From positions 1 through 56,083 of the forward strand of contig JBDRKX010000102.1 in NCBI GenBank assembly GCA_043813605.1: a DNA stretch of 56,083 nucleotides. Direction: 5' to 3'. The notes beneath the pieces are model-generated. The model ran no database searches, was not told the DNA's origin, and saw nothing but the letters and a program-made list of their open reading frames with translations. Made by a program: the position numbers and the translations under genes. The stretch is from Elusimicrobiota bacterium (GTDB taxonomy: Bacteria > CG03 > SLGR01 > JBDRKX01). Shown piece by piece: positions 4,977 through 49,500 of the stretch; the stretch's first letter is position 1; every line of letters starts with the position of its first letter.

Positions 4977-5009
4977 AATAGGTCTTATATATATAGTATA
5001 ATACTTTTT

Positions 5010-5053
5010 TGTGAAATATGTGTGAAATATGTGTGAAATATATGTAAAATTAA
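5010..5053 (-). promoter_or_regulatory. Four tandem 11-bp direct repeats (tgtgaaatatg x2, tgtgaaatata, tgtaaaattaa) upstream of small ORF A
   Basis: Exact 11-bp phasing is read directly from the sequence. On the coding strand each unit contains a -35-like TTCACA/TTTACA. The same motif family occurs at 25270-25321, 54229-54250 and 55859-55880. Confidence 0.55.
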
Positions 5054-5059
5054 TTATCA

Positions 5060-24660: not shown

Positions 24661-24704
24661 AAAAAAAACCCGCACTCTGCTCATCTCTAAACAAAGTGCG
24701 GGTT
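24661..24704 (-). terminator. Conserved hairpin + T8, copy B, between small ORF B and giant 2
   Basis: Same 10-bp stem as copy A (AACCCGCACT / AGTGCGGGTT); the loop differs at 2 nt. The TAG stop of small ORF B (24687-24689) lies in the loop. The T8 run ends only 8 nt before the giant 2 ATG (24652). Confidence 0.7.
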
Positions 24705-25241
24705 AATTACTCGGGCATTAGATGCCCGCCCGTACATCAAAATTGGATTTATATCATACTTATCTGCCAGATTTTGGATACATTTATCCACAGGTGTGAT
24801 AAACTTAAGCCGCCATCTGGAATAATACTGAAAATCATCATCGGGAGGCCTGCACCTCCGTTTCAGATAGTCGGTAAAACTCTTTAAACAAACACTGACT
24901 GCAGCCAGTATCCCTATCAAAAAGACAAGGAACATTGACTCTTTGGAAGCAAAAAGCGCTCCACCCATGATAAGGAAAAGGAAATTGAATATTTTTCTCG
25001 AATCCTTATCGTTTGAATCTCCCGCTCTATTACTCGTTTCCTGTACACTGCCGGTAGCGGCTCCTTTGACACATCCATTGACTTCCATAACAGCGATCGA
25101 CGGATAATTCAGCGCGGTTTTCAGCAGTGAAACCGCTCCGGTAATGTTCTTCTGGATCTGAAAAGTCCCCAGAGAGGTGAAAGACAGTATTACCAATACA
25201 GTCAGTATCGACAGTATTTGTCTTTTGTTAGAGTTTTTCAT
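24687..25241 (-). CDS. Small three-TM membrane protein, paralogue B
   Basis: 184 aa with an N-terminal TM (ILSILTVLVILSFTSLG) and two central TMs. Conserved tail: QYYSRWRLKFITPVDKCIQNLADKYDINPILMYGRASNARVINPHFV. Confidence 0.8.
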   Translation of the reverse strand: MKNSNKRQILSILTVLVILSFTSLGTFQIQKNITGAVSLLKTALNYPSIAVMEVNGCVKGAATGSVQETSNRAGDSNDKDSRKIFNFLFLIMGGALFASKESMFLVFLIGILAAVSVCLKSFTDYLKRRCRPPDDDFQYYSRWRLKFITPVDKCIQNLADKYDINPILMYGRASNARVINPHFV

Positions 25242-25538: not shown

Positions 25539-28500
25539 TTACGTCGAACTGAGCACGCTCTCTATCAGGTTGTTAGGCACGATATCATTGCTCGTTCCGC
25601 CGCCCAGGAACGCCGACATGGACGCTTTCAGTTGGTCGATTATAGAACCTCCATTACCGAAAGCGTAAGCCGCTATAGTGTTTATCTGTCCGCCGTTTAT
25701 CAACCCTTCGCCTGGAAGCACTCCGAACGGCATTTTCGCCGTTATATCAGCCGTCTTTGCGAATATGCTCTGGATTATACCGACTAGTTCACGCGCGCCG
25801 CCTTTTTCCTCCAGGTATTTCTTTATTCCGGCCGCTATGTAACCGTGTGAACCGGAAGGCTGGATATTCTGCAGTTCCCCGAGGAATCCTTCGTTTATCC
25901 TCTCTGCCGTCTCTATCACTTCTCCCAGCTGTTTTGCGGTCACTCCAGGCAATTTCTCGGCTATATAATCAGACAGCTCCTGTGTCGAACCGGCTGCCAG
26001 CGATTTCACCCAGCTGAACCACACTGGAAGCACTATTTTCTCCGTATCACTCATTGCAAGGCTGCCGTCAAGTTTCCCGAGTTCTTTCATGTATCCCTCT
26101 GCCGGGTTCTCGTCATACCGGTGCATCTCGTATGCAGATATTGTTGCCAGCACCTTGACGGCAAGATCAATATCCGCTGCAGCAAGCTCCTGTATAGCTT
26201 CATAAATATCGCTTCTTACGGTCAGTTTACCGGTTTCCGGGTTATAGGCAGTCACATCGCCTTTTTCTGCTCTTTCTACGCCTGTCACACCCATAACAGT
26301 AAGCTTTTCAGCCATGCCAGCCGGAAGTTCCCTTGCGATCTCTTCAATTGTTTCCGTATCCGCTAATACCGCTTCTATCTCCTTGACCTCATTTTCACCA
26401 ATATAGGCTGCCGGAAGATCGGTCTCAAGCGCTGTTGTCAGATCACCGACAGTATCTATTTCGGCATCAGTAAGTATCTGCTTGACTCCGTCTGAAAGGT
26501 CAAGATCATTAACAGATACATCCTGAACGCTCGAAACTGCCGCGACCTCACTCAAAGCTGTCTCAATTTCGCTCATCACAGTTATGCCTAATTCAAGTGA
26601 AGCAAGAACACCGTTATTTATAGCTGTTTCAAGTTCTCCGACATTGTTTATTCCCGCATCTTCAAGCTTAAGCTTGGTATCATCAGACAATGCCAGTTCC
26701 TGTACAGGTATTTTCTGTACTGCCGGTATGGATGTCAGCTCATTCAGCGCTGTTTCTATCTGACCTAACTCATTAGGACCAAGGTCTGCTATCGGGAGCG
26801 CTGTATCAAGCGAATCCTGAAGCGCTCCGGCACTTAGTATACCGGCTTCCATGAGAGTATCCTGGAGTGCAGGAGAAAGACCGAGACGGTCGACAGATAC
26901 ATTCCTCGCTGCCGCACTGAGAGGCTGCTGTGTCTGTGTTGCCGGCACATCTGCTGATGATATCCCGAGGAAACTCTTCACTTTGGATGTCAGGTTCTTC
27001 AGGCTGTCAACAACAGCGACCGTAGTCCATCCCATTGCACCGTAATCATACGCTCCCATATCAGAAGGTGTTGTCGTCTCTATTATCTCGCTGTCTTCAT
27101 AGACACCGTCTTTATCGACATCAACGACTACAACCGCATGTCCCTGGCCGGTTTCCTTGTTGAAAAGGAGTTTAATCACTGCCGACAGGCCCATATCTTT
27201 TGCCGCCAGGAAGAGCTGCACGCTCCTGTCAAGACAGTCTGTAGCAATCTGACTGGCACCTGCCGCTATACTCGACATCCTCTCGTTTATACCGGCCATT
27301 GTGGTATAGAACAGGTCCGATGTCGGAGCGTATATCTGGTTCTGGACAAAATCAACGATCTTGGCAAAAACACCTTCCGGTTCTGTGCCCTCTGTGTCTG
27401 CTGAAGGTATTGAAGCCGATATCTCAGGTACTGTCCTTTCCATTCCGAGGAGACTGTATATCTCGTCCTTTTTCTCGGCTGAAGTGACTGGTTTGTCGAG
27501 TACCGCTATTATCTGATCGATCGTATCGGGCTGTGCCGGTGCATCTATCTCAGCTATTACCGTTCCGGTAAGTGCCAGGTTCTCTGCCAGGTAATCCTGC
27601 GTCACACCTTCCATCTCAGGAAGCAGTTCCGCTACAACTTTATTCTTCACTGACACGTCCTGACCTTCGGCAACAGCCATAACAAGATCGGTGTAGGATA
27701 TCGTTCCTGTCAGGTACTGTACCAGCGGTGACTCGTTGAACGCGCTCCAGTTGCCGGCTTCAAACTCTATCGCTGCCTTGATATCAGCCTCGGTCATACC
27801 GGCTATCACAAGAGGTGAATCGGGAGCAGTAAGTATTTCCAGTACGTTTGCTGAAAGAGCCGTGCTGAGCGCTTTATAAGCGTTACTGCCTATGCTCACA
27901 GGGCCGCCTTCTGACTGTGCCCTGATCAATGCATTTATAAGTGTTTCCACTTTGACAGGTTCATCCGTATTCTCTATTATTCCCGCGTTCTGCAGCGAAT
28001 TAAGTATATGCGTTTCAACACCAGTATCAAGACCGAGAGCCTGTATGGAAGTATCTGTAAATGTTACAAGCGAACTGAATTCCGCAGGCACTGATACAGT
28101 TTCCGGTATTACTCTTTCTATACCAAGAAGACTGTATATCTCGTCCTTTTTCTCGTTTGAAGACACCGGTTTGTCGAGTACTTCTATTATCCGGCCGGCA
28201 ATTTCCGGAGTGACTCCGTCAAGTGTCGCCACAAGGTCTTCCTGTGTCACACTTCCCATCTCAGGAAGCAGTTCCGCCATAACTACATTCTTCACTGACG
28301 CGTCCTGACCTTCGGCAATAGTCATTGCAAGATCGCTGTAGGATATCGTTCCTGTCAGATACTGTACCAGCGGGGACTTATTGAACGCGCTCCAGTTACC
28401 GGCTTCAAACTCTATCGCTGCCTTGATATCAGCCTCGGTCATACCGGCTATCACAAGCGGTGAATCAGGAGCAGTAAGTATCTCCAGCACATTCACCGAG

Positions 28501-31500
28501 AGAGCCGTACTGAGCGCTTTATAAGCGTTACTGCCTATGCTCACAGGGCCGCCTTCTTCCGGTGACCTGGTTAATGCATTCATAAGCGTCTCCACTTTAA
28601 CAGGTTCATCCGTATTCTCGATTATTCCTGCATTCTGCAGCGTATTGAGTATCTTTGTCTGGACAGCAGCATCCAGTCCGAGAGCCTGTACTGTTGTAGC
28701 AGTTGTAAACGCTTCGAGCGATATCGATTCAGCGGCCGCCTGGAAGACTATTCCTGTATACGCTTCCCATACCGCCTGCTGTTCTTCGGCTGACATTGTT
28801 TCCGGAATAAGATCGGAAGCCATGAGTACCGCAAGCTTATCCTGAGGTTTACCTTTGAGTTCAGGATATGCCGCTACATTATTCAACATATCTGCCGCTC
28901 TGTCGAGACTCACAGCAACCGACTCTCCGGCATTCTCGGTAAGCATAGCGTTGACATCAGCTACGACCGGCGCCAGGCCGGATGTTATCAGGTTCTCCGT
29001 CTGTTTATCATCAAGCTTGAAGTTCTTTGTCTTCAACTCTTCGTAGAGCCTGGTGCCTTCAAGTATTGTCCTCTTTCTATCGTCATCACCTCTTAAGTTC
29101 TCTATTTTATCCAGTTTGGTATTGATAATCACAAGCCTGCTTACAGGATCCAGTCCCTGCATCATCAACATCATATTCTCTTTTTCTACAATTTCCTGTA
29201 CCACAGCGTCTACATCAATTGTCTCGGCCACCGAGTCCTCTATCTGTATATTCGATACATTCTCATCATTCATCATCTGGGTAATCTTCTTGCTGATACT
29301 TACCTTTATATCATCTGTCACATATTTTTCAGCCTGCGTTCTTATGGTTTCAGATGAACTGAAATTCAAACGCAGATTAGAAACAGATTCCTGGAAGTTA
29401 TTGGTAAGTTCGGCTTTCCTGGCTTTGCGGCTTTCATCATCTCCGCCGCCAAGACCCAACTGGATCAGCATTGCCAATATACCGTCTTTTAACACATCTT
29501 TTAATGTAGTTGTCGTTTTAAGCGACTCTTTCCTTGTTTCACTCTGACTTGCTATACTGCTGATCTTACTTTCAACTTTATCGCTGTTAAGACCGATCGT
29601 AACATCCTTCTTGTCTTCGCTGTATGTAACAGTGACAGGATCGGTAGTGGCTTCCGTAGTTGACGGCAGAACACTCCTGGAAAGCTCCTTAAATGTCTGC
29701 GCAATCTCTTTCGGATTCTTTGCGGATGCAAAAGAGAGCTCAAATTTCACGAGTATATTTCTTATCTTTTCAAGGTCGACATTTATCACCTCATAGCCCT
29801 CAGTACCTATCTCTTTTCTCATAAGTTCTCCGGTAACATCCTTGAGTTCCCTGATATTAGTTATATCCGTACCGGCTACCGCATTCTGAAGAGTACTAAT
29901 TTCTTCAGCAGTAAGACCGATAGCTTTTACTGTCTCCTCAGCTTTCTGTGTTCCAAGATCCGCTATGAGCGTATCCATCCTGCTATCGATGAGTTCCAGA
30001 TTTTTAATCCTCTCAAGCTCGGCTTTTTTCGCTATAGCCTCTGTCCTGATATCATCACTGATATTGGGTGAAGCTATTACTTTGTTCAGGATGTTAATGG
30101 AGTTATTTATGACTCCGGCCCACACTCTATTGACTCTTTCAAGAGGAGTAGTCAATTCTGAACTGTGGAGTCCGTTTTCATCAATAAGCGACCCATCCTC
30201 AACTGCAGTGTAAATAGCTCTAAGTTCTTCCTGCCCCTTGCCGGTAGATCTCTTGATCCACCCTTTCATCGGTTCCTGCACTATCCTGCCCATGGGCTCC
30301 AGACTGCCTTTATGCATTATCGAATTGGATTTTTCTATTGCTGTCCTGTAATTAGTCACAAGAGTAACAATTTCCTTTTCATCCAATACTTCCATAGCTT
30401 CTACAATATCCTCATTACTATAAAGGCCTTCGGCATTCGTTTCAGCGCCCATGTCCTCAAGAGCCGTCTGAAACTTATTCCATATTGCCCTGATATCCTT
30501 CTTGTCCGCCTCTGTAAAGAGCCCTTTGATATCTCCATCATGATCGTTCAGGAACTCTTCATACTGCATCATACCGACAAGGATATTTTCTACATTTGTA
30601 TCGCTTGTACCAATAAACCTGGCTGTTTTTGCGTTAGCCCTGCCGGTTCTTCCCAGCATCTGTGTCAGGCTGCCCCAGCCCATATTTTCTACACCTATCG
30701 CTATCTCTACAACCTGCCCCTTATAGTCATACGCTCTTGTCCCTACATCTGTTGTAAGCACGATCCTGTTTATATCCTGATCACTCTTAGTCCTGTTCTT
30801 CAAAGCTATCTTCTTCGTTATTTCACCCTGTATGTTTTCAGGCGTAGTATGCATATCGATGGTATCTATGACCCCTTCTTCGGATCTCAGCGCTTCCAGA
30901 AGAGTACTTTCCGCTTCAGTGATCGTCCCGGCTGTCTCTTTTGCGGTCAATTCATTTTCGATCTCATTTAGTTTTGTTTCTACAGCCGCCTTTAATTCAA
31001 GCAATTGCGATCCGCTTGCTACCCTCGACAGAACGCCGCTCTCGCCTATCAGATCAAGTCCAGTGGCTTTCTTTATTTGCGCAAGTTTTATTTCTTCCGT
31101 GCCGGTAAGCGTTCCGGCTTCCTCTTTGGCAAGCAGGTCTCTAAACTCGGATCTCTGTTCATCATTCATATCATTTAAGACACCTGATATTTCTCCGAGT
31201 TCAAATATTTTTCCTTGATATGCAGCTACTATCATCTCCGCAGCTTTCTTGACATCGAGATCATTTACATAATTATATGTCTTTGCCTCGAGCGAATCGA
31301 TTATCTCCACTGCCGCATTGCCGTAAATAGCGTTAGCTATAAGTTCAGCTGTATCCATACTTGCAGAACCGCCGGCTGTAAGGCTTCCCTGCGCGCTTCT
31401 GAGCTGCTCAAGCTCTACTCCCAGTTCAAACTTCCTGGTTTCAAGGTCGGCTTTCATATCGTCCATTGAACGGTTCTTTGTCTCGATATCAAACCGGGCG

Positions 31501-34500
31501 GCAATTCCGGCTACATACTCGCTCCGCACCTGGTCAACAGTCTTGTTTTCAACCTCTATACCGGCTGTTTCTGCTGCTGCGAGGAGTTCTGTTTCTGTAC
31601 CTTCGAACGCTATGCGCATGTCAGTTTCCAGAGCGGCTATGGTCTCACTGAGCGCGGCAACCTTCTGCGGATCATTCTTATCTCTAAAAAGCTCTGATAT
31701 TGTTGCCTGCCAGCTTCCTCTTGAAAGCTCGATCTTATCAGGATCGATCTTATATTCTCTAAGTTCCGCACTTATGTCGTCTATAGACCGGTCTTTTGTA
31801 GCTATCCTGAACTGTTCTGCCATTGCGATCAATTCCTCTTCAGTTCCATTGATCGCGGCTTCGATATCAGAATTTACTCTCAAAGACAGAATAACATTAT
31901 AAACGTCGCTGTTATCCCTGCTGCTTGTCTCCTTGGATTTATTTTGGCTTCCGGGAGAGAATCCCCTGCCGTCTTTCTCCATAGCTATTGTACCGTTATA
32001 TACTTCCGACATAGCCCGGAACGCGTTGCTTATCGGTCCGCCTAACCAGCTTTCCCACATATCGGAATTAGTCTTATATTCTTCCAGTTCCGCTTTTACG
32101 GCTTCTATTGACTGGCCTTCCGTATCTATACTGAACAGTTTTGCCATTGAGATCAATTCCTCTTCAGTCCCGTTAAGCGCTGCTTCAATATCAAAAGTCT
32201 TCCTGAGTATTCTGTCAGCAGCTTTATTCCAGCTGATCTTATGGGTATCCTCATTGCGGAAGAAATGCGGTGTCTCTACATTATCAGCCATATCGGATTC
32301 ATCGAATGTCTGCGTGATATTACTTCCGGTGATCTGTTCATATAAACTTTCCATCTTATCCACAAACACCTTATCCGCAGGTGTAGGTTCACCCGCGATA
32401 TATGTTGATAACGATAATGCCGCAAGATCAGCCTCATCAATAATACGCGTATATTCGGAACCAAGAGCTTTTTCCAGATCATCATTACCTTCATCCGCCG
32501 TCTTTTTGGCAGCTTTATGGACAAGATGCGTCCTGGTATGTATATCGTAAACCATTACGTTGCCGGGTTTATTAATTGCCTCTATCAGGCTCTTGTTATT
32601 ATCGTTCCTGTCTTCCAGTTTTTTCGCGTTTACATACGTCATACCATAGAGGTTGGCGAGCTTTTCTTCAGCTTCCTGAGCGGCCGGGTTCTCTGAACCG
32701 CTCACAAACCTGGTTATTTCACCTTCGGAACTTACATAAACAGCTTTTGCTTTATTGCTGCCCATTATGAGGTTTCTTGCACCTAAGACATGAGTATAAC
32801 CTGTCGTTTTTCCTCCTGATGTCGTAAGCTGTACGATCTTATTGTTCAGGTTTGCCCGGACCATAATCATCTGTTTTGAATGTCTTACCGGATCGAATCC
32901 CCGTACTATAAAGTCTTTATACAACTGCAGTTTTTCAATATACTCACCGGAGAAATCCTTATCAGGGTTGCCTTCTTCTATAGCGCTGAATACAGTATCG
33001 ACATAGTTCTCCATACCTACTTCAGATAGATTAATAACTTTTTCACCTTCTGCTGTCCTTATGACCGTATTGCCGTAGTTATTCACTCCGAACAGGATAT
33101 CAATCCTATCTGCAAAATAAACACTCTCCTTTTCCGTTATAAGCCCTTTAGTCTTAAACGCTGTTATCTCAGCCCTTATAGCGTTACCGAATGCTATACG
33201 CTCTTCGCTTGTTGCCGTTGTGAAATCAGGTACTTTTATTATTTTCCCGCCGCTCGTCACGAACTGGCCGTTTTGAGCCAGCTGCCCGAAAATATTGTCA
33301 ATTTCCTGCCCGAAATTGCTTTCCTTTACAACTGCTGTCTCTTCCTTGATCTCAACACGCCTGAACTCCTCGTATTTATGCTGGCTGTTTACCAGTGCGC
33401 GTTTAGCTTCGACTATCTTTTTCTTTGTATCCGCTACAACTTCGGTCTTTTTACTCTCATTATCTGCATTTAAATAATTTCCTATTGATTCACTCTGGAC
33501 CTGGAGAAGATTCATTTTTGCCGTTTCAACATTTATGATCTCTTCAACAACACCGTCATTTTGCATAGTCTCAATATTGCTCTCCATAACTCTTATTCTG
33601 CTGTCAATAATATTTTTCTGTAAAGTCAATTCTGCTGTTTCCAGGTCCTGAGTCAGTGTTTGTATACTGGTTTTATAAGTAGACGGCATACCCATTCTCG
33701 ACGCTATCATACCCCCGATAATGGGCAGGTAGAAATTATTTTCGCCCATGATCATTCCCAGAGGCACTGAAACAGCAAAGAACTTGGCCAGATGCAGCAG
33801 TCTGGGCTTCGATACACCGGATTCAGCGATATTCAAAGCTCTCAGCATAGCCAGTTCGGATGTCATTTCCTTTATGTTCCTGTCTGCCTCCAACTCGGTT
33901 CTTACATTATTCTTCACTATCGCAACGTCGCCGCCGTTCTCCTCTACTATCTCTTCTAACGGCATTCCCATTCTGGCCTCCAGCGGGACCCGCATAGTCT
34001 CAAGGAATGTCACATCTTTCATGTTATCGAGATTCGCAATATTAGCATCGGCTGCTTCCGTTTCCAGTGCTTTGTTCCTGTTATAAAGCTGATAGGCTAC
34101 CGCTTTATACATATACTGGAGCTCATCCGACCGTTTATTGCCTGTTATAAGTTTTATATCATCTGCCGTTATATCTCCGAATGTTTTCCTGGTCACATCA
34201 GCAGCATTATGTACATCCTGCAGTTTAACGCTTAACTGATCAAGCGCTGCAATATCATCCTGTGTAACTGTTGATACTGCGTCTGTTCCGGACGATTCCT
34301 GGGCTGTCCTTATTTCCACAAGACTGCCGGATATCATGCTGATAAACGCAATGTCTTCGGCTGTTAAATCAGCTGCTGTTACTACGGATTTTCTCAAGTT
34401 CACTATCTTTTCACCAAGCGTATTCGCAGTATCAATATCATCTTGTGTTACTTCATAAGACACTGTATCCAGCCCCAAAGATTCCTGGAGAAGTTTCATT

Positions 34501-37500
34501 CCAATTACAATCTCACCAAGATTACCGGCAACCTCCAGATCTGCATCGGAAAGATTATCTATTGCTGCTGCAACATCTTTCGCTACCTGTTTTTTAACTT
34601 CCCTGGGAAGCTCAGCAAGCGTGAATCCATCGAGAAGCGCTATATCCTGTGCCGCCACAAGGAATTCCCTTGTATTTTCAAGAGTCTCTATCTCTGCTGA
34701 GTAAAGCGAGCGCGTGCTCTCTTCTCCGTTTTTATCTATTACTTTAACCTGCACAGAATCAGGATTTGCTGATAACTGTCCCATAACTGTATCCAGCACA
34801 GCTATTTTATCCTGTATTCCCAGACTATTGAACTCAGCGAATAGTTCCTCATCTATTGTTTTTTCAGTTTTTTCTTCTACTGCCGGCTGTACCGGCGCGA
34901 CTGTTTCCGCTGCCTGGGAATCGGACTGGCTCATGGCGGTAAGTATCGGGTCTATACTGTCTTCAAGATCCTGTACCACGGTATTCACTCCGGCCTTTGC
35001 GTTCTCAAGCGCCTGCGCGTTTGACTGCTCCATTGCAGAGAATTCCGCGTCAATATTCGAATCAAAATCAGCCACCGTCGCCTGCAGCCCTGTCACTGCA
35101 TTCTCAAGCGCCTGCTCGTCGGACTGATCCATTGCCGACAGTACCGAATTCACACCCGCGTCGACATCCTGGACATTCGCCTGTATATTGGTCCTGGCGT
35201 TCTCAAGTGCCTGCTGGTCCGACTGCTCCATGGCAGAGAACGTCGCGTCGATCCCGGTCTCAAAATCCGCTACCGCCGTCTCTATTACCGTTCCGGCATC
35301 TTCCGCTGCCTGGGAATCGGACTGGCTCATGGCGGTAAGTATCGGGTCCATACTGTCTTCAAGATCCTGTACCACGGTATTCACTCCGGCCTTTGCGTTC
35401 TCAAGCGCCTGCGCGTTCGACTGCTCCATGGCAGACAATGTGGGACTTACATTAGAATCAAAGTCCGCCACCGTCGCCTGCAGCCCTGTCACTGCATTCT
35501 CAAGCGTCTGCTCGCCGGACTGATCCATTGCCGACATTATCGAATCAATGCCCGCATCTACATCCTGGACGATTATTTCCATATCAGATCTTGCGTTTTC
35601 AAGCGTCTGCGCATTAGACTGGCTCATGGCAGATATTATCGGATTTATATTAGAATCGAAATCAGCTACTGCTGTCTCAAGATCTGCTGCAAAATCTGTG
35701 TCTTCCATTCCTGAAAGTATCGCATCCATTCCCGACTGCAGATTCTGAGATGTCGTCTGAATATTTTCCGTGAGGTTTTCCAGCGCCTGCGCGTTAGATT
35801 GTTCCATTGCTGAGAAAGTCGCATTAACACCGGCGTCATAATCCTCTACAGTTGCCTGAAAATCAATTAAAGCAGTTTCAAATGTATCCATATCCGACTC
35901 ATCAAATGCCGTAAGTATGGAATCCATACCTGACTGAAGACCCTGTGAAGTTGTCTGGATATTTTCCGTGAGGTCCCCCAGCGCCTGCGCGTTAGATTGT
36001 TCCATTGCTGAGAAAGTCGTATTGATCCCTGAATCAAAATCATCTACTGTCGTTTCAAATCCGGCTATAGCATTATCAATAGCCGAAGTACCACCCGTAT
36101 CAGAAATACTTCCGATCAGCATATCATCTGATGTCACAATATCAGGTGTTGTTATATCATCTGAAACCGTCAATCCCGTATCAACTGTCCTTTGATCAGC
36201 ATCCGGTGTTAATGTGCTGTCAATAGTAACATTGCTGAGTATGTTTCCAGTTAAGCGAATATCTTCAGGCTGCATATTCACCACATTATCCATGGTTGCG
36301 CTGTTTTCTGATAAAGAATTATAGTCCATACCGAAATTAATATTGAATTTTCCGCCGCCGAGTACCTCCTGCATGTTTTCATTTGATATTCCAAACCCGT
36401 ATTCAAGTACTCCTTCCTGAACTGCTTCTTCCCATATCACCCGGTCAACAAGTTCACCGAACTTTGTTGTATGCGATCCCATTCCAAAAGTCTCCCATGC
36501 GGTTTCATATTGATATAATCTTCCTATCCCGGGAGCTCTTGACAGCAGGTAACCTGCCGCAGGGCCGACTAAAAGGCTCGGAATCAACAATACCTTTCCG
36601 AATTCGTAACCCATATCGTATCCGGACTGGTAACCGTCTATCCAGCTTTCAAATGAAAGCTCGCTGTCACCGAACAGTTTGGAGGATCCGAACTGCATGA
36701 TCATATTCGTGCCTGCGACAAGATGCCCTACATTAGAGAATCCTTCAACCGCATTGAAACCGGCGAACGACAGGCTATTTAAACCGCTTAGGGTCCAGTT
36801 GCCTGTCTGAGCCAACTTTGAGCTTCCCGAGAATAAGTTTACACTTCTTCCCCAGGTCCAGCTCTTCAAGCCGCCGGTAGCCTCAAATCCGGCAGCGCTC
36901 TTGACATTTGCCAGAGTCTGGCCGGCAACCTTCTTCACCGCCTCTATTCCTGTCGGTTTAACAGCTTCAGCTGCGCCAACCTTGGCCCCGAACTGTTTGC
37001 CGCCGGCCTTTGTAAAAGCGCTCGGCGCCTTAGCCAGTATCTTAGCACCTGTATATGCCATCAAGCTCTCGTAACTCCATTCTGCAAAACTGCCTGCCGC
37101 AACTGAAAAATCACCCGATAATGCTTCGCCGACAAAATCATAAGTGGAAGCTACCGAATCTACAGCTGCTGAGATCTTCGCAGAAAAATCGCCTTCGGTA
37201 AACGCCATGGCATAGGCGGTCTTTGCTCCGGCAAGAGTAGTCTGAGAAACCAATACAAACTGCGTGGCTTTTGCCAGCAGAGTCTCTCCTCTGACAACCC
37301 AGGAAACATATTTTGCGCCTTTGACACCGTTGAGCGCGGTACTGGTTGCTCCCGCTATTTTGGTTCCGACAACAAACGCTTTCTGACCCCAGCTGAATCC
37401 CTGGATAAAAGTACCTGCTCCTCTCAACGCGCCGCCTATCCAGCTTCCGGCGCCAAAACTGAGCGCTGTTGTTGCGAATAACGTTATATCAAACGCGGCA

Positions 37501-40500
37501 TCAACCCATGTGTACATGTTCTGATGCATGGCAAGGTTAACAGCTGTGTCCCCGAGTGGTACATCGCCGTTCCTTAATCTACTGTCAAAACCCTGTGCCC
37601 ATGAAGAAAAACTGTTTTCCAGAACGCCTATTGCAGCCTGCGCCCTTACAAGCAATTTGAAATTATTGGAATTCCGGCCCGCATCAAAAGCATCCGTGAG
37701 CATTTTTGTAGTTATCTTATCCGAAGCCATGCCGGCATCCACAGAATTCTGGAGATAATCAACCCATTTATCACCCTTTATACGGCTCTTCTGTCCAAAA
37801 CTGGATATCTCCGTCCTTCTAAGATCGGCTCCCTGGAAATAAGCTGCGAGCATCGACCTGTCTGTTTCGCTGAGACGATTCATTACGTCTATCATCTCGT
37901 TATCCGTTGCCCGCCTGGTATCAAGGGTCTGCTTATTTAATCCGTCCGTTGCTATTTCCGTAACGACTTCGCGTTTTACTATCCAGTTAAGAGCCGTTCC
38001 GGACATATCTTTTTCTCCGCTCTTTACTTCTTCAACTTTATATGTTATCTGTTCAAGCGCGCCGAAATCAGATGTTTTTATTGTAAGACTAGCTATCTCA
38101 CCAGGACCACGAAGAACCCTGTTTACATCCATTATCCTGTCGACCTTAAGGTTGTTATCCTTCACACTGAACTCTACATAATTACCCTTCTTATTAAACA
38201 CCCACCCGTCCTGACCGCCTTTAACAGTGGCTCTTATCTTTCCGTTAACATAACTCAACTCCATGTCATCGGTTATCGGACAGTTCTTGTTCAGGTAATT
38301 GCCTTTACTGTCAAGTATCACCTGGCCGAATTTTACGGCACGGTTTGCATCGTCTTTATGCCTGTATATTTTAAAACCGCTGTCACCCATTTTCGCCGTG
38401 GCATCTGCATCCAGCTTAAACGCATCCATGTCAATGGAAACCTTTACGGTTTTTGAATTATACGTAAGACCTTCTTTATTCTTGATCGCGTTGCCCTTGG
38501 CATCATACAGGTAGGTATTCTCAACAGTGAGCATAAGATCGTTCTTGGAATATGTCATCCTTACCATATTGACCTGTCCATCCGATCTGTACTTATACTC
38601 TGTCTGCAGCTCTTTATATTTAACCAAGCCGTCAACCCTGTAATTAGTATCGTTTGTTACCTGCAGTTTAAGTACCTGGCTGGTACTTCCGTCCTTGTTC
38701 GTTACAGTGATAACCTGGGATCTTTCGGAATGTGAATCGGAAGAATTCAGTACTTTCCTGTTCTCGCCGTTCAGGCCTTCAGTAAACACGCTGTATCCCG
38801 AGTTTTTAACGGTATTTTTAACCGCTACAACATTACCGGATTTATCAACAGTATAATCCGCATTGATCTCGACAGCTTTAAGGTTCCCCTTACCGTCATA
38901 AAAGTAGTTTGCGTTCCTGATATCATAGTGCTTGCCGATCCTCTCTCCATTCGAAACGGTCCATTCGTCATATCCTTTATCTTTAGTGCTTATTACTTTC
39001 AGTTCTCCGTTTACGAGTCCAAGAGTTTCTTTATGACTGTCAATGTTCCTCCCTGCTATTTCCTTCTCTGTTCCTGATGTCATATCATAAGTGCGGCTCT
39101 CATATCCGGATCCCTCTATGACAACCCTCAACCCGCCTTTGTAACTGTACTTTGCAGTTCTTGTGTCATAATGCTCCGTTGATTTTATCTGTTGTCCGTC
39201 CATGGTCCTGAAAGCAACAGCATTATAATTTTTATCGTATGTTCCTGTGATTTTGACCTCGCCATCTACAAGCCGCCATGTTTCTTTATGCACTTCTGCG
39301 GTTTTTCTGCCCGCCAGTATCGGATTATCCGGGTTAGTAGCTATATCGTAAGTATCGCTCTGGAATCCCGTGCCGTTGATATTTTTTCCAACCAGATTAC
39401 CTTTATCATCATATTTGAAATCAGTAGTCTTTACAGCGTAATGATCATTTGTCATATTAGCGCCGGACTTATCCTGAGCCCAGGTGTCACAGTTATGTTC
39501 GACCGCTTTAACCAGCTTGAACTGGCCATCCATCATCTGCCAGTTTTCTGCCCGGGACTTGGCGGCACTTCCGTTAATATCCGTAAAATCACCGCCATCG
39601 ACTGCAACACTTGTTTTGGTGTTGTACCCGTCTCCGGTTACAGTCATTATCTTGTTACCTGAAGCGTCAACACCATAGACAGCTTTTCTTTCATCCCAAT
39701 GCTGGGTAGACTTCATCATCATCGCTGCGCCTGTTACGGTGTCTATTTCTGTCTTCTCAGTCACCACGTTGTAATTGGAATCCTTTCTGCTCACCAATGT
39801 GATATTGCCCGCTTTATCCACCGTAAAGGTCTCTATATGTTTATCCGAAGTAGTAAGCGCTTTTATCACATCATCACTTGAACGCGAAATATAATTGTCA
39901 CTGGTTACGGTTATTCCTGTCATTTTTCCGTTAGAATCGTATGCGTAATCAGCGATCCTGCCGGCTGAATCCTCGGTTACTTTGTTTCCCTCTACGAGTC
40001 TCCAGGATTCATAGTTTGTATCTGTTGTCTTGACAAGGTTAAGCTGGCCGCCCCTCATACCCAAGACCTGTTCGTGCATATCAGAATGTTTATACGAAGT
40101 CTGGGTACCTGCAGAATCGAAACCTTTAAGTTCCCAGTTATCCCCGCTGATAACACTTGCAAGAAGATTTCCTTTAGCGTCATAGGTATTATTCACGCTC
40201 CTCGATGAATATGTCTCAAGTGTAGTTGTGCCGGTTTCGGAATTAAGTTTCCAGTTAGAGTAATTATCCATTGTCGTCTCTTGAGATTTATATACGCCAT
40301 TGCTTTGAATTACCTGCCGGTCTTTATAATTATCTCCTTTGACAGTATTAGTGACAGTCCCGTCCAGCGTAACGGTTTTCTCAAAAAGATCCGCTGTAAT
40401 GGTCTTATTTATACCATCCACCGCTTCACTCATGTTCGTGTACCTGTCAACTTCAGTTTGTCTCGTATTGAACTGACTGCTGATATTGGTCGGATCAGCA

Positions 40501-43500
40501 TATGTGCCGTATTCAGTTTCAAATATTGTCACATTCCCTTCGACTCTCTTGGCTTGCACGATCTTATTATCTGTATATGCGCTGCTCGTCACATAGGATC
40601 CTGTCAGGTGTTTCAGGTCGGTAAAAGTCACATTATTACATATCTGCTGGCTGCCGTCCGCATTTATCTGCATAAATGAATTCAATGCAGCATTAGATGA
40701 AGAGTACTTAGCTGTCTGGAACCCTCTTATATATTCATTTGAAATATATTTTTCCCCGTTAAACACCATAAGAGAATCATCTCCGGACTGTCCGGTCGCA
40801 TTAAGGGTTCTCACTCCATGCTCAAGTATCTCCTGGGCTTTCAGTATATGAGGATTATCTTTAGGCATACCTGTTCCCGTTGATTCAGCTTTAACAGGCA
40901 CGCCGTTAGCATCATATTCATAGACAAATCCGACTTCAACTATTGTTTTTACCTGATCGCTGCCGTATGTATATGACTCTACCTGGAAATGCGTCCATAC
41001 ATCATCTTCATTTGCAAAAACAGTATTGATATTGTAGCCTTCTTCAAAATAGTCGAATGTGGATACGCTCTCTCTGCCTGTTATCTGTTTGCCTATAAGA
41101 GTGAATTCTACTCCTCCCCTGTTATAAACAGTATCGCCCTCGGCGGCTGTTACTCTGAATGTGGTACTCTGTACCGCGCGGCCGCCGACATGTTCTTCTA
41201 TCGTTACATACTCATTCTGATTAACGCCAACATTATGAAAGACATAGGTCTCTTTAGTACCGTCTATCACATGAGCTAATGTTGTGGATTGGAGCCATTT
41301 ACCCGGATTTACCGGACCCATAGCGGCGGCATTAATCAGGGCATTCGGATCTTCAAATCCGCCCATTATGGCAAGCGTCTCGGAATCACTTAATGTACGC
41401 TGGCCAAGAGTTGCATTGGCAGAAAGCACCATAAACTTGTCAGCCGAATTGAAACCAGCGACTCCTCCCTGTCCGTTTCCTCCGACGACATAATGACCTA
41501 TCCCGTCTTCACCCGAAAGATATACTATTGCAGAATTACCCGACCCTATATAGTTGTTCAGGTCACTTGAACTCACTTCTGCTGCATGCAGTGTAAGTCC
41601 GTACTGTTTAGCTGTTGTCTGGATAGCAAACATGGATGTCGCCAGGACATCACCGCTCTGTTCAAATACTCCTTCATTCAGTGATCCGGTCATTATATCT
41701 ATGAGAAGAGTCGTGGTAGCCAGACCTGACTTCGTATGGGCTATACCCTGCTGAGTCAGAATATTGCTGAGAGCATCTGCAGCGCAGTTCATGACCTCCT
41801 GTGTTGCGCTGACAAGCTTGATCATATGATTAAGATTCTGCTGCGTAAGGGCTATTATCGGATTTTCGTCCGGGTTAAGTCCTATTTTAATAAGCATTTC
41901 ACGCTGTTCAGCTGCTGTTGCAGTCATATATTTCTGACCCCAGAGCATGACATTTGACAGAGTTTTGGCTCTTGTTGTACTCAGGTCCAATGCCTCTTCA
42001 ACAGTCAATGCACCCGTCTTTACAAGATAAGCCTTTTCCGGATCTACCTGGATATCACCATAATAGAGTCCTGATTCGGTCTTACTGTAAACTCCGTCAG
42101 TACCGTACACAGAACATACTTTGATCTGCCCGTCGCTCGTATAATCGCCGGCAGTATATCTGCCTGACGCAAGATCACCGGTCAGTCCGGTATCCTTTGT
42201 ATAAATATGCCCTATACCTGTTTTCTCATCTCTGAAGATTGAAGTCATATCACCGGAACTGTTATAGCCTTTATCAAGCATACCTTTGACAAGACCGGCC
42301 TGGGCATCCTCTCTATAAGAACCGGTAACAGTCTTATCCAGTATACCGTCATTAACCGCTATTCTGCTGATTACTGCAGTACCGGCACCCTGCTGGCCGG
42401 CGACAACAGTATCATAGTATCCGTCCGCTTTGCCGGTCACACCTTCTGACATTGTAACAGCCCATACATTCACATCGGCATCCGCCTGCGCTTCCTCTAC
42501 GAATAACAGTCCGGAATCAGTATTCAGCAGACTTCCTTTGACCATTTCACCGGTTATCTGCGCGTATGTTCCCGTCAGTTTTTGAACTACAATTCCATCG
42601 GAGCCCACGGCTATTCTATTGATCACCGTAGAACCCCCTACACCGGCGACAACAGAATCGTAGGTACCGGCGGCAAGCCCCTGTATACCGTCTGCTGTTG
42701 TTAATGTCCATGCCAGTTGGTTTATTCCGGCCTGTTTCTCGCTCATGAAAAGCATACCTGCATCAGTATTAACCAGATCCCCTTTTATAAATAATTCTTC
42801 CTTTATATTTGCATAAGTTCCTGAGAGTTTATTATCTAACACAGCTCCACCGGTTACAATGATCCTGTTAACGACCTCAGTACCCAGAACTCCGGCTATA
42901 ATAGTGTCATAATTACCTGCAGATGCAGCGCCGGTTATTCCATTACTCTTAGTCGATGACCATACAAGCTGATCGACACCGACCTGTTTGTCATCAATAA
43001 AGATCATTCCGGAATCAGTATTAAGCAATGTTCCCTTGACCATTCCGGCATGAGCGTCTTCTCTGTACATCCCGGATAGCGCTGACACATACTTGCTGTT
43101 CTCATCAACCGCGATCCTCTGTATGACAGATGTACCGGCAATCTGACTATCATAGCTGCCCGCCTCAGCCAATCCTGTTATACCCTTGTTCCTGTCTACT
43201 GACCAAACCATACCCGCTTCATCATCAATAAAGAGCATTCCGGAATCAATATTGATTACTTTACCCTTCACATAACCGGCTGTTGCATCTTCTCTGTAAA
43301 CGCCGGATCTTTTTGTATCATATACCCCGTCCTCAAGAACAGATACTTTTTCAAATACAGAAGCGCCGCTCTTGCCGACAATATTCCTTATGTAATCGCC
43401 TTGTTCAGCCAGTCCGTCTATCCCTTTATCTTTGCTAACTGACCATACAAGCTGTTCTGTTCCCGACTGTTTTTCATCGACAAACAGCATTCCTGAATCG

Positions 43501-46500
43501 GTATTTATTACGTTTCCTTTTACCTGGCCCGCTGTTGAATCCTCTCTGTAAATACCTGATCTTGTTGTACTGAGAGCCCCGTTATTCATCACAGCGATCT
43601 TCTCAAATACTGACGAGCCGCTCACTCCCACAATAGTCCTTATATATTCTCCTTCTGCTGCTACACTTCCTAACCCGTCTTCCATACTCATGTTATGTAC
43701 CAGCCGGCCGGCTGGTGTCGATTCTTCATCCACAAAGAGCATTCCGGTATCCATATCGGCTATTCTTCCTTTTACCCAATTACCTTCCTCGGCTTGTCTG
43801 TAGAATCCCGCAGTATTCTGTCTGAGTACGCCATTATCATATGTAGATATATAGCTGACATTATTGGTTATCCCTTTTGTATAAGTACCGGAAGCTAATC
43901 CGACAATACTTCCATCTTTGATCTCATATCCAAGAGAATCAGAAGTACTCATAAATACGAATGTTTCCCCGCTATAATCTCCTTTAAGACCGCCGTCCGC
44001 ATCAAACACGGCATTTGTCTCCACATACCTCGTTTTGTCTATTGTTACTATCCTGGAATTCATCCTGGGGTCAGAAACATCATATGTGAGCTGGCCGTCT
44101 TCCGAAACAACTACATTGTCCGTAGTCCTTGTTACGCCTGATGAATCCGTATATGACGCTCTCATATCTGAGATGTCGGCTTTCAGGTCAAAAGCATTTG
44201 ATCCGTCAATATTGCTTGCCGTATATGTTATGCCCTTGCTATCAGTCCAGGAATAACTTCCTTTAGCTATCTGATTGTAAGCACCGGCAAGAGAACTGAC
44301 CGCTGAACCGCCCGCACTCAAGAACACTTCACCCCAGTCCATCTCTTCTTTCAAACCGAAACTTACATTTAAGGCTCCACTAACAGCGCCCGTCAATACG
44401 GAGGTGCAGAAATCCGCTGCTGCCTGTGAATATATGACACTATTGATGTTAACAGTACCATCTGTAACACCGGGACTTGTCGCTCCGAAAGCATCTGCCA
44501 TTGCAGGCTGTATTACTGCAGTCAAGCCGGCGGTTATCCCACCGATTGCTCCGGCTTTAAGAGCCATGCCGAAATCTATACCGTCACCTGATATAGCCTG
44601 CCTTACAAGGCTCATCCCTGTACTGGTAACAAATCCGGCTACTACCGCTCCTAGTATTCCTCCGCCAACCGCATCTGATATTGACGAGGATATCCCACCC
44701 AGCGGGCTGAATCCAGCCAGACTGCAGACTCCCATTGCCGCGCCCAGTATATCGCCGCTCTGTACTGCATTAACTATACTGTATACTTTATAAGCCGCAC
44801 TAACTACATTGTATATTGTACCAAGCGTACCAGTACTGAATGCGCCAGTTACCGGAGCCAGCGCGCTGGTTATAGGAGCTGTCACTGCAGATACCGCAGA
44901 ACTGACAGCTGTTATTGCTGAACCCACCGCTGCTATAGCATATCCAGCTGCGAAAACTACCGCTCCAGCCGCTGCTACAACAGCTCCAGCTGCTATACAG
45001 GCAATGCCTCCAACTATTCCCGCTATACCGCCGGCAGCTAATAATCCAGCCCCGGTAGCCATAAGAGCAGTACCGGCAGCCATTATAGCGCTTCCAGCAG
45101 CCGCTATCGCTGTTCCTACCGATGTTAAAACACTTCCAACGGTAACAGCTGTTGCTGCTGATGCTGCTGCTGTTGCCGCGGCGCCGGCTCCTACTACTGC
45201 AGGAGTAGCCGCGCCCCAGGTAACCACTATTACTACAATTGCTATCACAACAAGGCAAACGATTCCAAGTATGTTACGGGCGCCCATTGTTTCCTGGGCT
45301 TCCTGCTCGGACATATCCTGACCGATAGATTCTTCAGAAAGGACTTTTATATTTGCGCCCGCGCGGTTCTGGAACTCATCTTCGGTCATCGTCTTTTTCT
45401 GACCGTCGGAGTCTGTGTATGATACTATCCCGTTATCTATACCAGTGATCGTGATATAATGGTCCCCGTCAACATGAACGATCAGTGAATTACCCTCGTT
45501 TATGTAGTTCTTCAGATCAGTAAAATTAGTAACATTCGCATGCAGTTCAATACCGTATTTAGTGCTCGCGACTTTCTGTATCGCGAACATAGAAGTCTCC
45601 AACTGGTTACCGCTCGCAAGATCATCCAGAGTGACCGAACCGGTAAGCAGGTCGATGAGAAGAGCATTGGTCGCTATTTCCTGTTTATCACCGGTTATAC
45701 CGAGCTGAGAAAGCAGATTGACAAGGGCTTCTACAGCACAGTTTATAGCGCCTATAGTAGAATTCATAAGATCCATAAGCGCGTTAATGGTCTCAATAGC
45801 GATATTTAATGAGATATCATCAGTATCCAGGCCCAGGGCGGCAAGCATCTCGGTTTTTCTCTCATCACTCGCTCCCATGTATTCAAGCAGCCAGTTGATT
45901 ATCCCCTGTATCACCTCTGCATCAGCAGTCTCCGCTGCCGGCATATCTATGTTCAACGCAGCAGCCATAAGATCCACAAGTTCCTGTCCCGCTATTTCGC
46001 TGTTCTCTGCTACAGCGGATACGAGTTCAGCAAGTTCCTCATCAGCCATTTCCGCTGATGCTGCTACCGCTGATATCAGGGCGCCCATATCCTCAACTGT
46101 CATATTCTGCTCAGCAGCGACCGCTGAAATAAGCTCTGCAAGCTGGGCTGTTTCGAGTTCGAGGCCGGCAAGTACTTCAGCCAGTTCTTCGGTTTCAAGC
46201 CCGAGAGCATTTATAAGATCCGCGAGTTCTTCTGTTTCAAGTCCGAGCCCGTTGATAAGCTCAGATGTTTCTTCACTGTTCAACCCCAGTTCTTCAATTA
46301 CTGCCGCCATTTCATCCGAACTTAATCCCTGGCTCTTGAGGTACTCAGCAAGTTCTTCGCCTTCAAGGCCTTCTTCTTCTATATGTTTAATTATCTCTTC
46401 TTTCTCTTTTTCGGCTTCTTTCACACCCTCAAGTTCTTCCGTGACGGTTTTATCCCCCGGCTCTGAGGTCTGTCCCGTTGTAGTTGTCACTTCTTCAGAA

Positions 46501-49500
46501 GAAATGCCAAGTTGACTCCTGATATCTTCTTTTTCTGATTCTTCAATATCAAGATTGCTTATTATCTCTTCCTTATCTTCTTCCTCAGCATCCATTTTTG
46601 ATAAGACAGAAACGAGCTCATCTTTCTCAAGTTCAAGGTTATCCAGAAGCTCCGCTTTTTCTTCGTTCTCAAGATCAAGACTGCTTACGACCTCGGCAAG
46701 AGATTCATCGTCCATATCAAGCCCGTATACAAGATCAGCCAGCATCCCGCTGTCAAGTTCAAGCCCGTCTATCAGTTTCGCGAGGTCTTCCGATTCGAGC
46801 CCGAGTTTATCGATGAGTTCTATCATATCATCCATGAACATTCCCATGCCTTTTATTATTTCAGCAAGTTCTTTAGCTTCAAGCCCGAGGCCTTTCAGCA
46901 TATCGGAAAGTTCATCACCTTTTAATCCGAGCGCTATAAGCAGCGCTGTAAGTGTTTCTACGTTCAGACCAAGGCTCTTCAGATACTCAATAAGCTCATC
47001 GCCTTTAAGTCCTTTCTTCCTGACATCAGCCATTATTGAATTAACTCTACTATTTACAGCAGCACTGAACGTCCTCTGCTCGTGTACTTCGTAATGAGTG
47101 TCACGGCGCTCAGGTCTTTCCTGAGTTACCTGCTGCTGAGTAGTCTGCCGGGCCGTGGTATCCCCGCCGCCGTCATAACTCTGCTGAGGCGGCCATACAA
47201 GGTTGCCGTCTTTATAATATTTTCCGCTTACAGGTTCAGGGTCTTTTGCATTTCCATTACTGTCATATGTATATTTCATTACAAAATTTTCGAATTTTTC
47301 ACTTGAAATGACTTTACCTTTAGAATCTGTAGTTTTAATAGTACCGTTAAGCTTTTCTGTGTCTACTTTTCCAATTTCATTGTATGTGTAATCTTTACGC
47401 AGATCATACGTTGTTGTCTTGCCGTTCTCTGTAACTGCACCGGAGATTATCACATATGCCGGTTCCTCGGAATCGCCTTCATATCCGAATTCCTGCTTAA
47501 AATTATTATATTCCTGAACTGTTTCTTTACCGTCTTTTGTTTCAATAAATTTCCCATCTATTACTTCAAGAGTTTTCCTGCCCTGTGCGTCATAAGCGTA
47601 TTCTTTCGAGAATCCGTCAAACTCCATCTTAACACCGTCTTCGACTGCTGTGCCATTTCGGGTTTCTTTTAATACATTACCTTCAGCATCACGAACATAT
47701 TCAACTGTATAATCAGTATACTCGCTCTTGGTTGTCTTCCCGTTCTCTGTCTGAGTAAGCTTGCCGTTAAGAGTCTCTTTTATAACATTCCCGTCAGCGT
47801 CCTTGACCGTCTCCTGCTCGAAATCCTCGAATTTCTTGGTCACGCCGTCTTCTATTGCCGTGCCATTCCTTTTTTCTTTTGTAATATTGCCATCTGCGTC
47901 TCTTGTATACTCGACACTGTAACCAGTATATTCCGATACCTTTTCAGTACCGTCAGCGTCTATCTGGGTAAGTTTACCGTTAAGCGTCTCTTTCGTAACA
48001 TTACCGTCGGCGTCCTTCACCGTCTCCTGCTCGAAATCCTCGAATTTCATGGTCACGCCGTATTCGACTGCTATGCCGTTCCTGGTTTCTTTGGTTATAT
48101 TCCCCTCACTGTCATACTCGAACTCAACGGTAAAATCAGTGTATTCTCTTGTACCGTCAGCATCTACCATTGTTCCATTACGGGTTTCTTTTATGACATT
48201 CCCTTCAGAATCATACGCGAATTCCTGCACGAACTCCGTATACTCCATTTCTACGCCGTCTTGTATTATAATCCCGCCGGACACCTGTTTGATGACTCTG
48301 CCTTCCGAATCATACGTATAATCAATTGAATAATCCGTGTATTCCCTGACAACGGTTTTACCGTCTTTGGTCTCTGTTATTTTACCCGACATCACTTCAC
48401 TCGTAACTCTTCCTTCAGAATCGACTACCGCCTGCTTGGCATAATTATCAAACACCATTGTCGTACCGTTTTCTATCGCGGTACCGTTTCTGGTTTCTTT
48501 AATAACATTTCCATCAGCATCGAGTTCGTAATCGACAGTATAATCACTGTACTCAGAGACAGATGTTTCCCCGTCCTGAGTTTGAGTCATTTTGCCGTTC
48601 ATAACTTCTTTTATAACATTCCCGTTGGCATCTTTGACTGTTTCCTGGCTGAAATTCTCAAATACCATGTGCGCGCCCTGTTCAGTTGCCTCGCCGTTTC
48701 TTATCTCTTTGATCACATTCCCGTTGGCATCATAGACTTTTTCAACACTGAAATTATTATATGTCCTTACATCCTGTACTCCGTCTTTTGTAATTGTTAT
48801 CGTACCGTTTCTGGTTTCAGTTTGAACTTTACCGTCAGATGTATAGGTCATATCCATCTTGAAATTGCTGAAAACCTGTGTTTCTGTGGATTCACCTTCT
48901 TCAGTTACTTTAAGGGTTCCGTTCAGGGTCTGCTGACTAACTTTTCCGGCAGAGTCATACTGACAATCAAGTGTATAATCAATGTATTCATTTGTTGTTA
49001 CATTACCGGCATTATCAGTGACTATCATAATACCGTTCTGAACGGATTGTGTTACCCGCATCGGATCGGTACTTGTATCATACGTGTTATCAATAGTAAA
49101 ATTATCATACTCCCGGTATGAAGTGGTTCCGTCATCATTTGTTACTTCTACCTTTCCGTTCTTTACTATAGTGGCTTTATCTTCACCTTCAGTTGTAACG
49201 GTCTCGGTATACCCGTCCATAGCTGTCTCGGTCGGATCTGATGAATCAGTTGATGTTGTTGTATCACCTGTTGTGCCGGTTGTCGGCGGAGTTACAGCGG
49301 TACCTCCGTCATAACCGGAACTACCCATTATTTTTTTCATTTGCGCAACCGATAATTTATTAGTCACAGTTTTATTAGCAAGAATTTTCACTTTTCCGTT
49401 TTTAATAAGCCTCTGCGAACTCATGGTCTTTGTTGTTCCGTCTGAATCTATATATGTAGCGGTATCTCCTATGATATCTGTTATTACTACATAGTGGTCA

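Follow-up and report, generated by a model that had tools for sequence, protein, structure and literature searches.

The 56,083-nucleotide (nt) stretch of contig JBDRKX010000102.1 from an Elusimicrobiota bacterium (assembly GCA_043813605.1), referred to below as the window, contains on its minus strand (25539..53510) an open reading frame (ORF) of 9,323 amino acids (aa), named g1, which hosts an ATPase module. Sequence comparison indicates that this module is real and conserved and that its catalytic motifs are intact; it is probably a catalytically active ATPase of superfamily 2 (SF2), of the 'DEAD' type with two RecA lobes (RecA1 and RecA2). The module appears closer to the motors of the DEAD-box RNA-helicase type than to SecA, to which it had been likened in the original prediction made from the same DNA. 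The best explanation, to which we assign a probability of about 0.55, is a DEAD-box-type clamp gated by ATP, located in the cytoplasmic tail of g1 and having nucleic acid, probably RNA, as its most likely substrate. The module is also extremely divergent, as it escapes every curated profile and only seven relatives are known.

The ATPase module and its relatives

The original prediction described a divergent SecA-like motor on the basis of five peptides arranged in SecA order. All five are located inside g1, in the order and at the coordinates claimed (Table 1). The conserved part is somewhat larger than the interval proposed for the motor, 30560-32900, and extends over nt ~30240-32924 (aa 6863-7757). 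When 1.84 billion representative proteins were searched exhaustively with phmmer, seven relatives were recovered with E-values from 3.8e-47 to 1e-5, each a fragment of some other very large ORF; the named sources are a metagenome-assembled genome (MAG) of Candidatus Omnitrophota, an Elusimicrobiota MAG and unclassified MAGs. Together with g1 they form a family of eight sequences with a module of ~900 aa, in which the same four blocks occur in the same order. The protein from the Elusimicrobiota MAG is 48% identical to g1, with the similarity extending to aa 7757.

In an alignment of six sequences, comprising g1 and five relatives, the invariant positions are Gln6880, G6899-G-K6901, E6931, R6993, D7025-E-x-D7028 and S7382. 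GGK(T/S) and DE(A/C)D are the variants of motifs I and II observed across the relatives, and G-R-(T/S)-G-R is kept in every relative that includes RecA2. Conservation of the Walker A lysine and of the Asp and Glu residues of the DEAD box, which had been suggested as a check, is thus borne out in g1 and its relatives. A chance co-occurrence of motifs, or a decayed and inactive helicase relic, would be consistent with the failure of all curated profiles to recognise the module and with its degenerate motifs Ia and Ib. Such an origin is extremely improbable and can be discounted, because the seven relatives, with E-values down to 3.8e-47, keep the residues of ATP binding and hydrolysis invariant across identities of 25-50%; the match to DEAD-box helicases described below (P 3.5e-10) also argues against it.

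Further homologue searches using a 980-aa region, the alignment A1 or RecA1 alone yielded no additional relatives, and none were found in scans of genome, metagenome (two scans) and viral contig collections. The closest relative (P0002) and its near-duplicate (P0008) share a 7.2-kb contig of an Elusimicrobiota MAG (JBHOUT010000083.1), where they are encoded on opposite strands and overlap at 3452-3489, which looks like an inverted-repeat assembly artefact.

Comparison with DEAD-box helicases and SecA

The consensus motifs of DEAD-box helicases are DEAD, S-A/G-T/S, TDVxxRxxD and GRTGRA, with PTRELA as motif Ia and TPGR as motif Ib, while those of SecA are DEVD, TGT, TNMAGRGTD and GRSGRQG. The five motifs originally attributed to SecA fit the DEAD-box consensus equally well or better. 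TDVGTRAYD has 5/9 residues in common with the DEAD-box sequence TDVAARGID and 3/9 with TNMAGRGTD of SecA, GRTGRA in g1 is identical to the core of DEAD-box motif VI, and GGSASM of motif III corresponds to GGSGTM in the relatives and to FSATM in DEAD-box proteins. The motif residues of the module are therefore of the DEAD-box type and not of the SecA type. Motifs Q, I, Ia, Ib, II and III are in register in RecA1, and motifs V and VI in RecA2; DEAD-box helicases have the same two RecA lobes with the Gln of motif Q, GxGKT, the Glu of motif Ia, the Arg of motif Ib, DEAD, S-A/G-T, motif V and GRTGR. However, DEAD-box helicases have a compact core of ~350-400 aa, whereas the module is enlarged by an insert of 160-355 aa and, between the lobes, by another segment of variable length, and is covalently part of a 9,323-aa membrane protein.

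Profile-profile comparisons were performed in hhalign with a DEAD-box profile made from five Escherichia coli paralogues (RhlE, DeaD, RhlB, SrmB and DbpA) and with two SecA profiles, one comprising 81 proteobacterial sequences and a broad one comprising 28 sequences from Pseudomonadota, Actinomycetota, Bacteroidota, Mycoplasmatota and Bacillota, including SecA2 and a plasmid SecA-like protein. The unmodified family aligned to DEAD-box RecA1 with a probability of 76% (P 2.2e-5), over a region spanning the Q motif to DEAD and continuing into the DEAD-x-ML-x-GF context, and motifs V-VI of RecA2 aligned with a probability of 86% (P 4.9e-6). Upon excision of the insert between motifs II and III (residues 350-511 of P0003, a compact relative), RecA1 was unbroken over residues 25-214 of DeaD, with a probability of 96.7% and P 3.5e-10, and GGSGTM was placed on FSATM of motif III; four cut points for the excision gave P from 3.5e-10 to 1.4e-8. 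SecA itself, after excision of its preprotein cross-linking domain (PPXD), matched the DEAD-box profile with P 1.6e-10 to 3.2e-12, which is about equal to the score of the family.

Matches of the family to the SecA profiles were weak and local, with P 0.0025-0.016 in the Walker A region, 0.006-0.014 from motif III to motif VI and 0.035-0.07 in RecA2, and PPXD-excised SecA gave only P 0.006. The C-terminal part of the module aligned no further than SecA residue 594, and no scaffold, wing or two-helix finger of SecA was detected with the SecA_SW profile or by hhalign. The procedure is sensitive, because it easily recognised two positive controls from a plasmid collection, both of them divergent but bona fide SecA-like proteins. 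An ORF of 1,589 aa from Candidatus Megaera (26% identity to E. coli SecA) gave P 2.9e-37 with SecA and 1.4e-5 with DEAD-box helicases, and a SecA-like protein from Embleya (24% identity) gave P 7e-21 and 0.023, respectively, which is the reverse of the pattern found for the family.

When single sequences served as templates under equal conditions, the DEAD-box proteins of E. coli, namely, RhlE (P 7.6e-7, probability 92%, both lobes, residues 20-356), DeaD (1.1e-5), RhlB (1.7e-4), SrmB (5.6e-4) and DbpA (1.4e-3), all outranked SecA (0.019), which was 8th of 11. RecQ (P 7e-4, Walker A region only), placed between SrmB and DbpA, was the sole SF2 protein outside the DEAD-box group that fell within the DEAD-box range among those tested; the remaining templates were RecG (0.007), UvrB (0.06), DinG (0.1) and Rep (0.36). 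Home-built SecA and DEAD-box hidden Markov models (HMMs) applied to single sequences were too weak to discriminate, with scores of ~0-6 bits.

Searches of curated libraries revealed no match to SecA_DEAD (PF07517) at E up to 10 in g1, its sub-regions, the seven relatives or the family consensus, and at the same limit no match to SecA_PP_bind (PF01043) or SecA_SW (PF07516) in g1, the relatives or the consensus. The Pfam families of DEAD-box helicases are DEAD (PF00270) and Helicase_C (PF00271). The latter produced sub-threshold matches over motifs V-VI (E 0.005-0.05, 14-18 bits vs a cut-off of 23.5), while DEAD matched a single relative, with 12.4 bits where 26 are required, and had no match on g1 even at E up to 10. 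The consensus of the family HMM matched nothing in Pfam, and NCBIfam, PADLOC and PHROGs gave nothing for g1 and the relatives. The phmmer and hmmsearch comparisons with PDB, including a profile of the insert-excised RecA1, returned nothing significant and no SecA; motifs V/VI of DeaD appeared in the profile search at E 0.22.

Thus, the proposal that the module is SecA-like in particular was not upheld, since no SecA profile matches it and the best profile-profile matches are generic SF2 helicases of the DEAD-box group, an outcome that the original prediction itself had named as refuting it. On these comparisons the module is not demonstrably a member of the SecA family, and the label 'SecA-like' is not supported. 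A motor derived from SecA or resembling it, either a fast-evolving descendant or a convergent analogue, would use the insert as a PPXD and push segments of g1 or of a partner through a membrane channel. Such a motor would account for the colinearity of the weak matches to SecA and for the position of the insert, as well as for the distance of 21 residues between the Q-like Gln and the Walker Lys, which is the same as in SecA, while DEAD-box proteins have 23. SecA likewise combines a DEAD-like SF2 motor with a large domain inserted after motif II and before motif III, and it is likewise associated with the membrane and with a secreted or membrane polypeptide. Nevertheless, we consider this origin doubtful, given that the family is far nearer to DEAD-box helicases, that its motif residues are of their type, that no scaffold, wing or C-terminal linker was detected and that the SecA profiles find no match.

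Insert, topology and genomic setting

The original prediction also noted ~340 aa of repeat-containing insert at the place of the PPXD. This feature was confirmed, as ~355 aa separate DEAD (aa 7025-7028) from GGSAS (aa 7380-7384) and include three 44-aa repeats. The insert itself is ~330 aa long in g1 (aa 7046-7375) and ~160-190 aa long in the compact relatives, from which the 44-aa repeats are absent in the alignment; the repeats occur nowhere else in g1 or in the second giant protein of the window, g2, in which no paralogue of the module was found. The insert is predicted, with low confidence, to be mostly helical. It is located between motifs II and III, where SecA carries the PPXD, and to our knowledge no SF2 family other than SecA has an insert at this site. 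The inserts of RIG-I, Dicer and Hef follow motif III, and that of DDX1 is located between motifs I and Ia.

No similarity between the insert and the PPXD was detected by hhalign, which gave P 0.86 and, with the broader SecA profile, 0.48, and the real local score was reached by 8 of 100 column permutations (z 1.5; global z 0). A forced global alignment to E. coli SecA was persuasive by eye, with KVFG on the N-terminus, F..D..tG.i.vS resembling HFSVDEKSRQVNLTE, nALRA resembling AALRA, and ATiS..F resembling ASITFQNYFR. The alignment and these by-eye matches were rejected as evidence, because the score of the insert with the PPXD showed no excess over the column-permuted controls and stayed at P 0.48 with the broader SecA profile. 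The site of the insert and the Gln-to-Lys spacing leave room for a module that 'works like SecA', through either analogy or very deep homology.

The AlphaFold2 models, calculated from the eight-sequence alignment, were poor because this alignment has only eight sequences. The mean predicted local distance difference test score (pLDDT) was 60.8 and the predicted template modelling score (pTM) 0.32 for g1 aa 6863-7720, with 52.4 and 0.29, respectively, for P0003; pLDDT in the insert was below 50. Foldseek comparison of these low-confidence models with PDB gave no match at E <= 1e-3, and its weak lists mix RIG-I, Dicer, Mtr4, SecA (E 0.03-0.3), UvrB and a DEAD-box N-domain. The presence of SecA chains is in line with a SecA-like motor, while the top matches, RIG-I, Dicer and Mtr4, all have helical insert domains. 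The latter would agree with another insert-bearing class of SF2 proteins, such as RIG-I/Dicer-like translocases, or with a nucleotide-dependent switch or scaffold of the tail or its partners, and the highly variable length of the insert, with its gain of lineage-specific repeats, is as expected of an adaptor surface. We regard a module of either kind as unlikely, since the Foldseek matches are not significant (TM-score ~0.1), an insert of the RIG-I type does not follow motif II, and DEAD-box proteins are on top in hhalign with only RecQ, in its Walker A region, within range.

A Kyte-Doolittle scan of g1 revealed hydrophobic segments at aa 16-41, 999-1017, 2747-3000 (a cluster), 5638-5656 (weak) and 6571-6607, and none from there to the C-terminus, the maximum hydropathy past aa 6700 being 1.37. 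The module begins ~250 aa past the last of these segments. Because no transmembrane (TM)-like segment follows aa 6607, the module and the remaining 1,560 residues would be located on one side of the membrane, and the need for ATP indicates that the module almost certainly faces the cytoplasm, as had been suggested.

Four copies of a C39-peptidase-like domain are present in g1 (aa 529-718, 1187-1368, 2534-2713 and 3851-4007; window ~41490-51926). They are 44-54% identical to each other, and each retains a Cys (..INCA..) and a His (..GHYVV..) as putative catalytic residues. The copies are interleaved with the TM segments and could cut g1 into pieces. The region upstream of the module also contains YD/RHS-like repeats (weak match to Pfam RHS). 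Downstream of the ATPase, in the same cytoplasmic tail, there are three helix-hairpin-helix repeats resembling the C-terminal domain (CTD) of RpoA-alpha (PF03118, E 2.2e-7; aa ~8870-9040, window ~26391-26903), and the relative P0006 also has a PF03118 match ~1,000 aa after its RecA2. A long low-complexity Ala/Asp tract (ADAASDAADAA...) at aa ~720-990 of g1 (window 50001-52000) forms a local peak of GC content, 0.554 vs ~0.44 elsewhere.

The gene for g1 is part of an array of three units on the minus strand (window 1-54158), in each of which the gene for a small membrane protein precedes a giant ORF. The small proteins s214, s184 and s206 are paralogues with 25-38% identity and have a common C-terminus, ..NPILMYG.AS..INPHFV; no entry on record was found for the small ORF of the window. 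The giant proteins g1 and g2 are homologous at their C-termini (aa 9060-9323 of g1, 25539-26330, and aa 6262-6530 of g2, 5060-5866) over ~265 aa with 30% identity (E 1.5e-16), and this common terminal domain may be a docking or targeting module. The N-termini of g2 and g3 are alike (..ILIQDLHAN(F/Y)EVQKNI..). The g2 protein contains two cyclic-nucleotide-binding domains (E 2.7e-25), a metallo-beta-lactamase fold, LysM and a region similar to RIO/APH kinases, as well as weak matches to zinc metallopeptidases. Upstream of the array, the minus strand encodes a receiver protein of the CheY type (54252..54662) as well as a protein of 371 aa (54694..55809) with YD-repeat-like periodicity.

Table 1. 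Features of the ATPase module, of g1 and of the gene array, in window coordinates
Feature	Residues	Position (nt)	Strand	Basis or remark
Whole conserved ATPase module	6863-7757	30240..32924	minus	colinear blocks with P0001-P0007
RecA1, first part	6871-7045	32376..32900	minus	hhalign to DEAD-box profile and invariant columns; contains motifs Q (Gln6880), I, Ia (E6931), Ib (R6993) and II
Motif I peptide QLTTSGGKTTGY	from 6894	32831-32796	minus
Walker A / motif I, GGKT	6899-6902	32805..32816	minus	G-G-K invariant in 6/6 aligned sequences
DEAD-box peptide RIIDEADLAALSLSTYIAGEP	from 7022	32447-32385	minus
Walker B / motif II, DEAD	7025-7028	32427..32438	minus	D-E-x-D invariant; variants DEAD, DECD
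Insert between motifs II and III	7046-7375 (~330 aa)	31386..32375	minus	alignment with relatives; in-silico excision
44-aa repeat, copy 1	7105-7148	32067..32198	minus	E 2e-27
44-aa repeat, copy 2	7213-7256	31743..31874	minus
44-aa repeat, copy 3	7295-7338	31497..31628	minus	followed by a partial fourth copy
RecA1, last part with motif III	7376-7410	31281..31385	minus	hhalign, GGSGTM on SATM; Ser7382 invariant
Motif III peptide LTAGGSASMDTAEL..	from 7377	31382-31299	minus
Variable inter-lobe segment	7411-7490	31041..31280	minus	length differs between relatives
RecA2 lobe	7491-7650	30561..31040	minus	weak Pfam Helicase_C; hhalign to DEAD-box RecA2; RhlE alignment over both lobes
Motif V peptide LTTDVGTRAYD	from 7585	30758-30726	minus
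Motif V, TDVGTRAYD		30726-30758	minus	within RecA2
Motif VI peptide LGRTGRANAKTARFIGTSD	from 7619	30656-30600	minus
Motif VI, GRTGR		30639-30653	minus	within RecA2
Helical extension after RecA2 (..TNYRTAIEKSNSIMHKGSLEPMGRIVQEP..)	7651-7757	30240..30560	minus	conserved with P0002, P0003 and P0004; no match to SecA scaffold domain (hhalign)
Last hydrophobic TM-like segments of g1	6571-6607	33690..33800	minus	Kyte-Doolittle scan
Unit 1, s214		53514..54158	minus	followed by g1 (9,323 aa)
Unit 2, s184		24687..25241	minus
Unit 2, g2	6,530 aa	5060..24652	minus
Unit 3, s206		4440..5060	minus
Unit 3, g3	at least 1,477 aa	start near 4430	minus	runs off the window start

A putative clamp in the context of giant proteins

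A DEAD-box-type clamp in the tail of g1 would operate through the closure of the two RecA lobes on ATP, which would clamp an extended polymer, and through hydrolysis of the nucleotide, which would release it, as in DEAD-box motors; the insert would be a lid that binds the substrate or a partner. The polymer would most likely be a nucleic acid, and probably RNA that is kept at the membrane, because the motifs are RNA-helicase-like and the RpoA-alpha-CTD-like repeats are found downstream in the same tail. Several points weigh against this interpretation. The substrate of the clamp is purely inferred. Motif Ia reads GE-I/V and motif Ib RGHL in the module, degenerate forms of PTRELA and TPGR, so that binding of RNA is uncertain. 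An insert between motifs II and III is absent from canonical DEAD-box cores. The assignment is based on profile-profile comparison of small alignments (effective number of sequences, Neff, ~2-2.6) with no secondary-structure term, no Pfam, NCBIfam or PDB match reaches significance, with the module below the thresholds of both DEAD and Helicase_C, and the two AlphaFold2 models, being of low confidence, provide no structural confirmation.

Motors embedded in giant proteins have been described previously. Among the giant proteins of Omnitrophota and of some Actinobacteria, most carry 'divergent secA DEAD helicase domains', which overlap SecA preprotein-binding domains, lack the scaffold and wing, and are located behind TM anchors in the C-terminal part of the protein, with C39 domains close to the N-terminus; the proposed role of these domains is the export of accessory proteins or of the very protein that carries them (West-Roberts et al. 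2023, bioRxiv 10.1101/2023.11.21.568195). An architecture group with PF07517 among long Omnitrophota proteins is reported in a 2026 preprint (bioRxiv 10.64898/2026.06.07.730766). The self-export function originally suggested for g1 is thus a hypothesis already in print for giant Omnitrophota proteins. The layout of g1 is the same as that described by West-Roberts et al., including multiple TM segments, N-terminal C39 domains, an ATPase after the last TM segment and the lack of a scaffold and wing; several giant genes are likewise clustered, and one relative of the module comes from an Omnitrophota MAG. These similarities are in favour of a SecA-like motor. However, the SecA_DEAD and PP_bind HMMs by which the published domains were identified do not detect the g1 module, and the module and these domains were compared by description only.

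Outside Omnitrophota, plasmid CP113870.1 of Candidatus Megaera polyxenophila (Rickettsiales) encodes two neighbouring 'SecA-like domain proteins' (5,225 and 1,589 aa). These represent another case of an SF2 motor in very large proteins. The 1,589-aa protein is a clear SecA, including the PPXD (SecA residues 64-592, probability 99.9%, P 2.9e-37), and its SecA-like domain resembles the g1 family only at motifs V-VI (P 1.8e-4).

A polypeptide motor of the SecA style could also have arisen by convergence, from a DEAD-box ancestor that acquired a clamping insert at the site of the PPXD and was fused in cis for the translocation of g1 or the neighbouring giants; in a variant of this scheme, a membrane-tethered clamp would hold the 28-kb mRNA for co-translational insertion. 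We consider such an origin quite unlikely, and the notion that the module drives the export of g1 itself is speculation.

The insertion and export of bacterial proteins of 10,000-80,000 residues is an open question, for which the recurrent 'SecA-like' ATPase in giant proteins is the sole published clue. At least one motor embedded in a giant protein is not recognisably SecA and shares with it only the position of the insert, and caution is due with respect to 'SecA-like' labels on giant proteins and to the self-export model built on them. A small and sharply defined family, comprising eight sequences of ~900 aa, is now available for experimental study. Action on RNA would make the module an RNA clamp that is anchored in the membrane as part of a giant secreted protein; action on polypeptides would mean that a helicase has given rise to a protein translocase a second time, along an independent evolutionary route.

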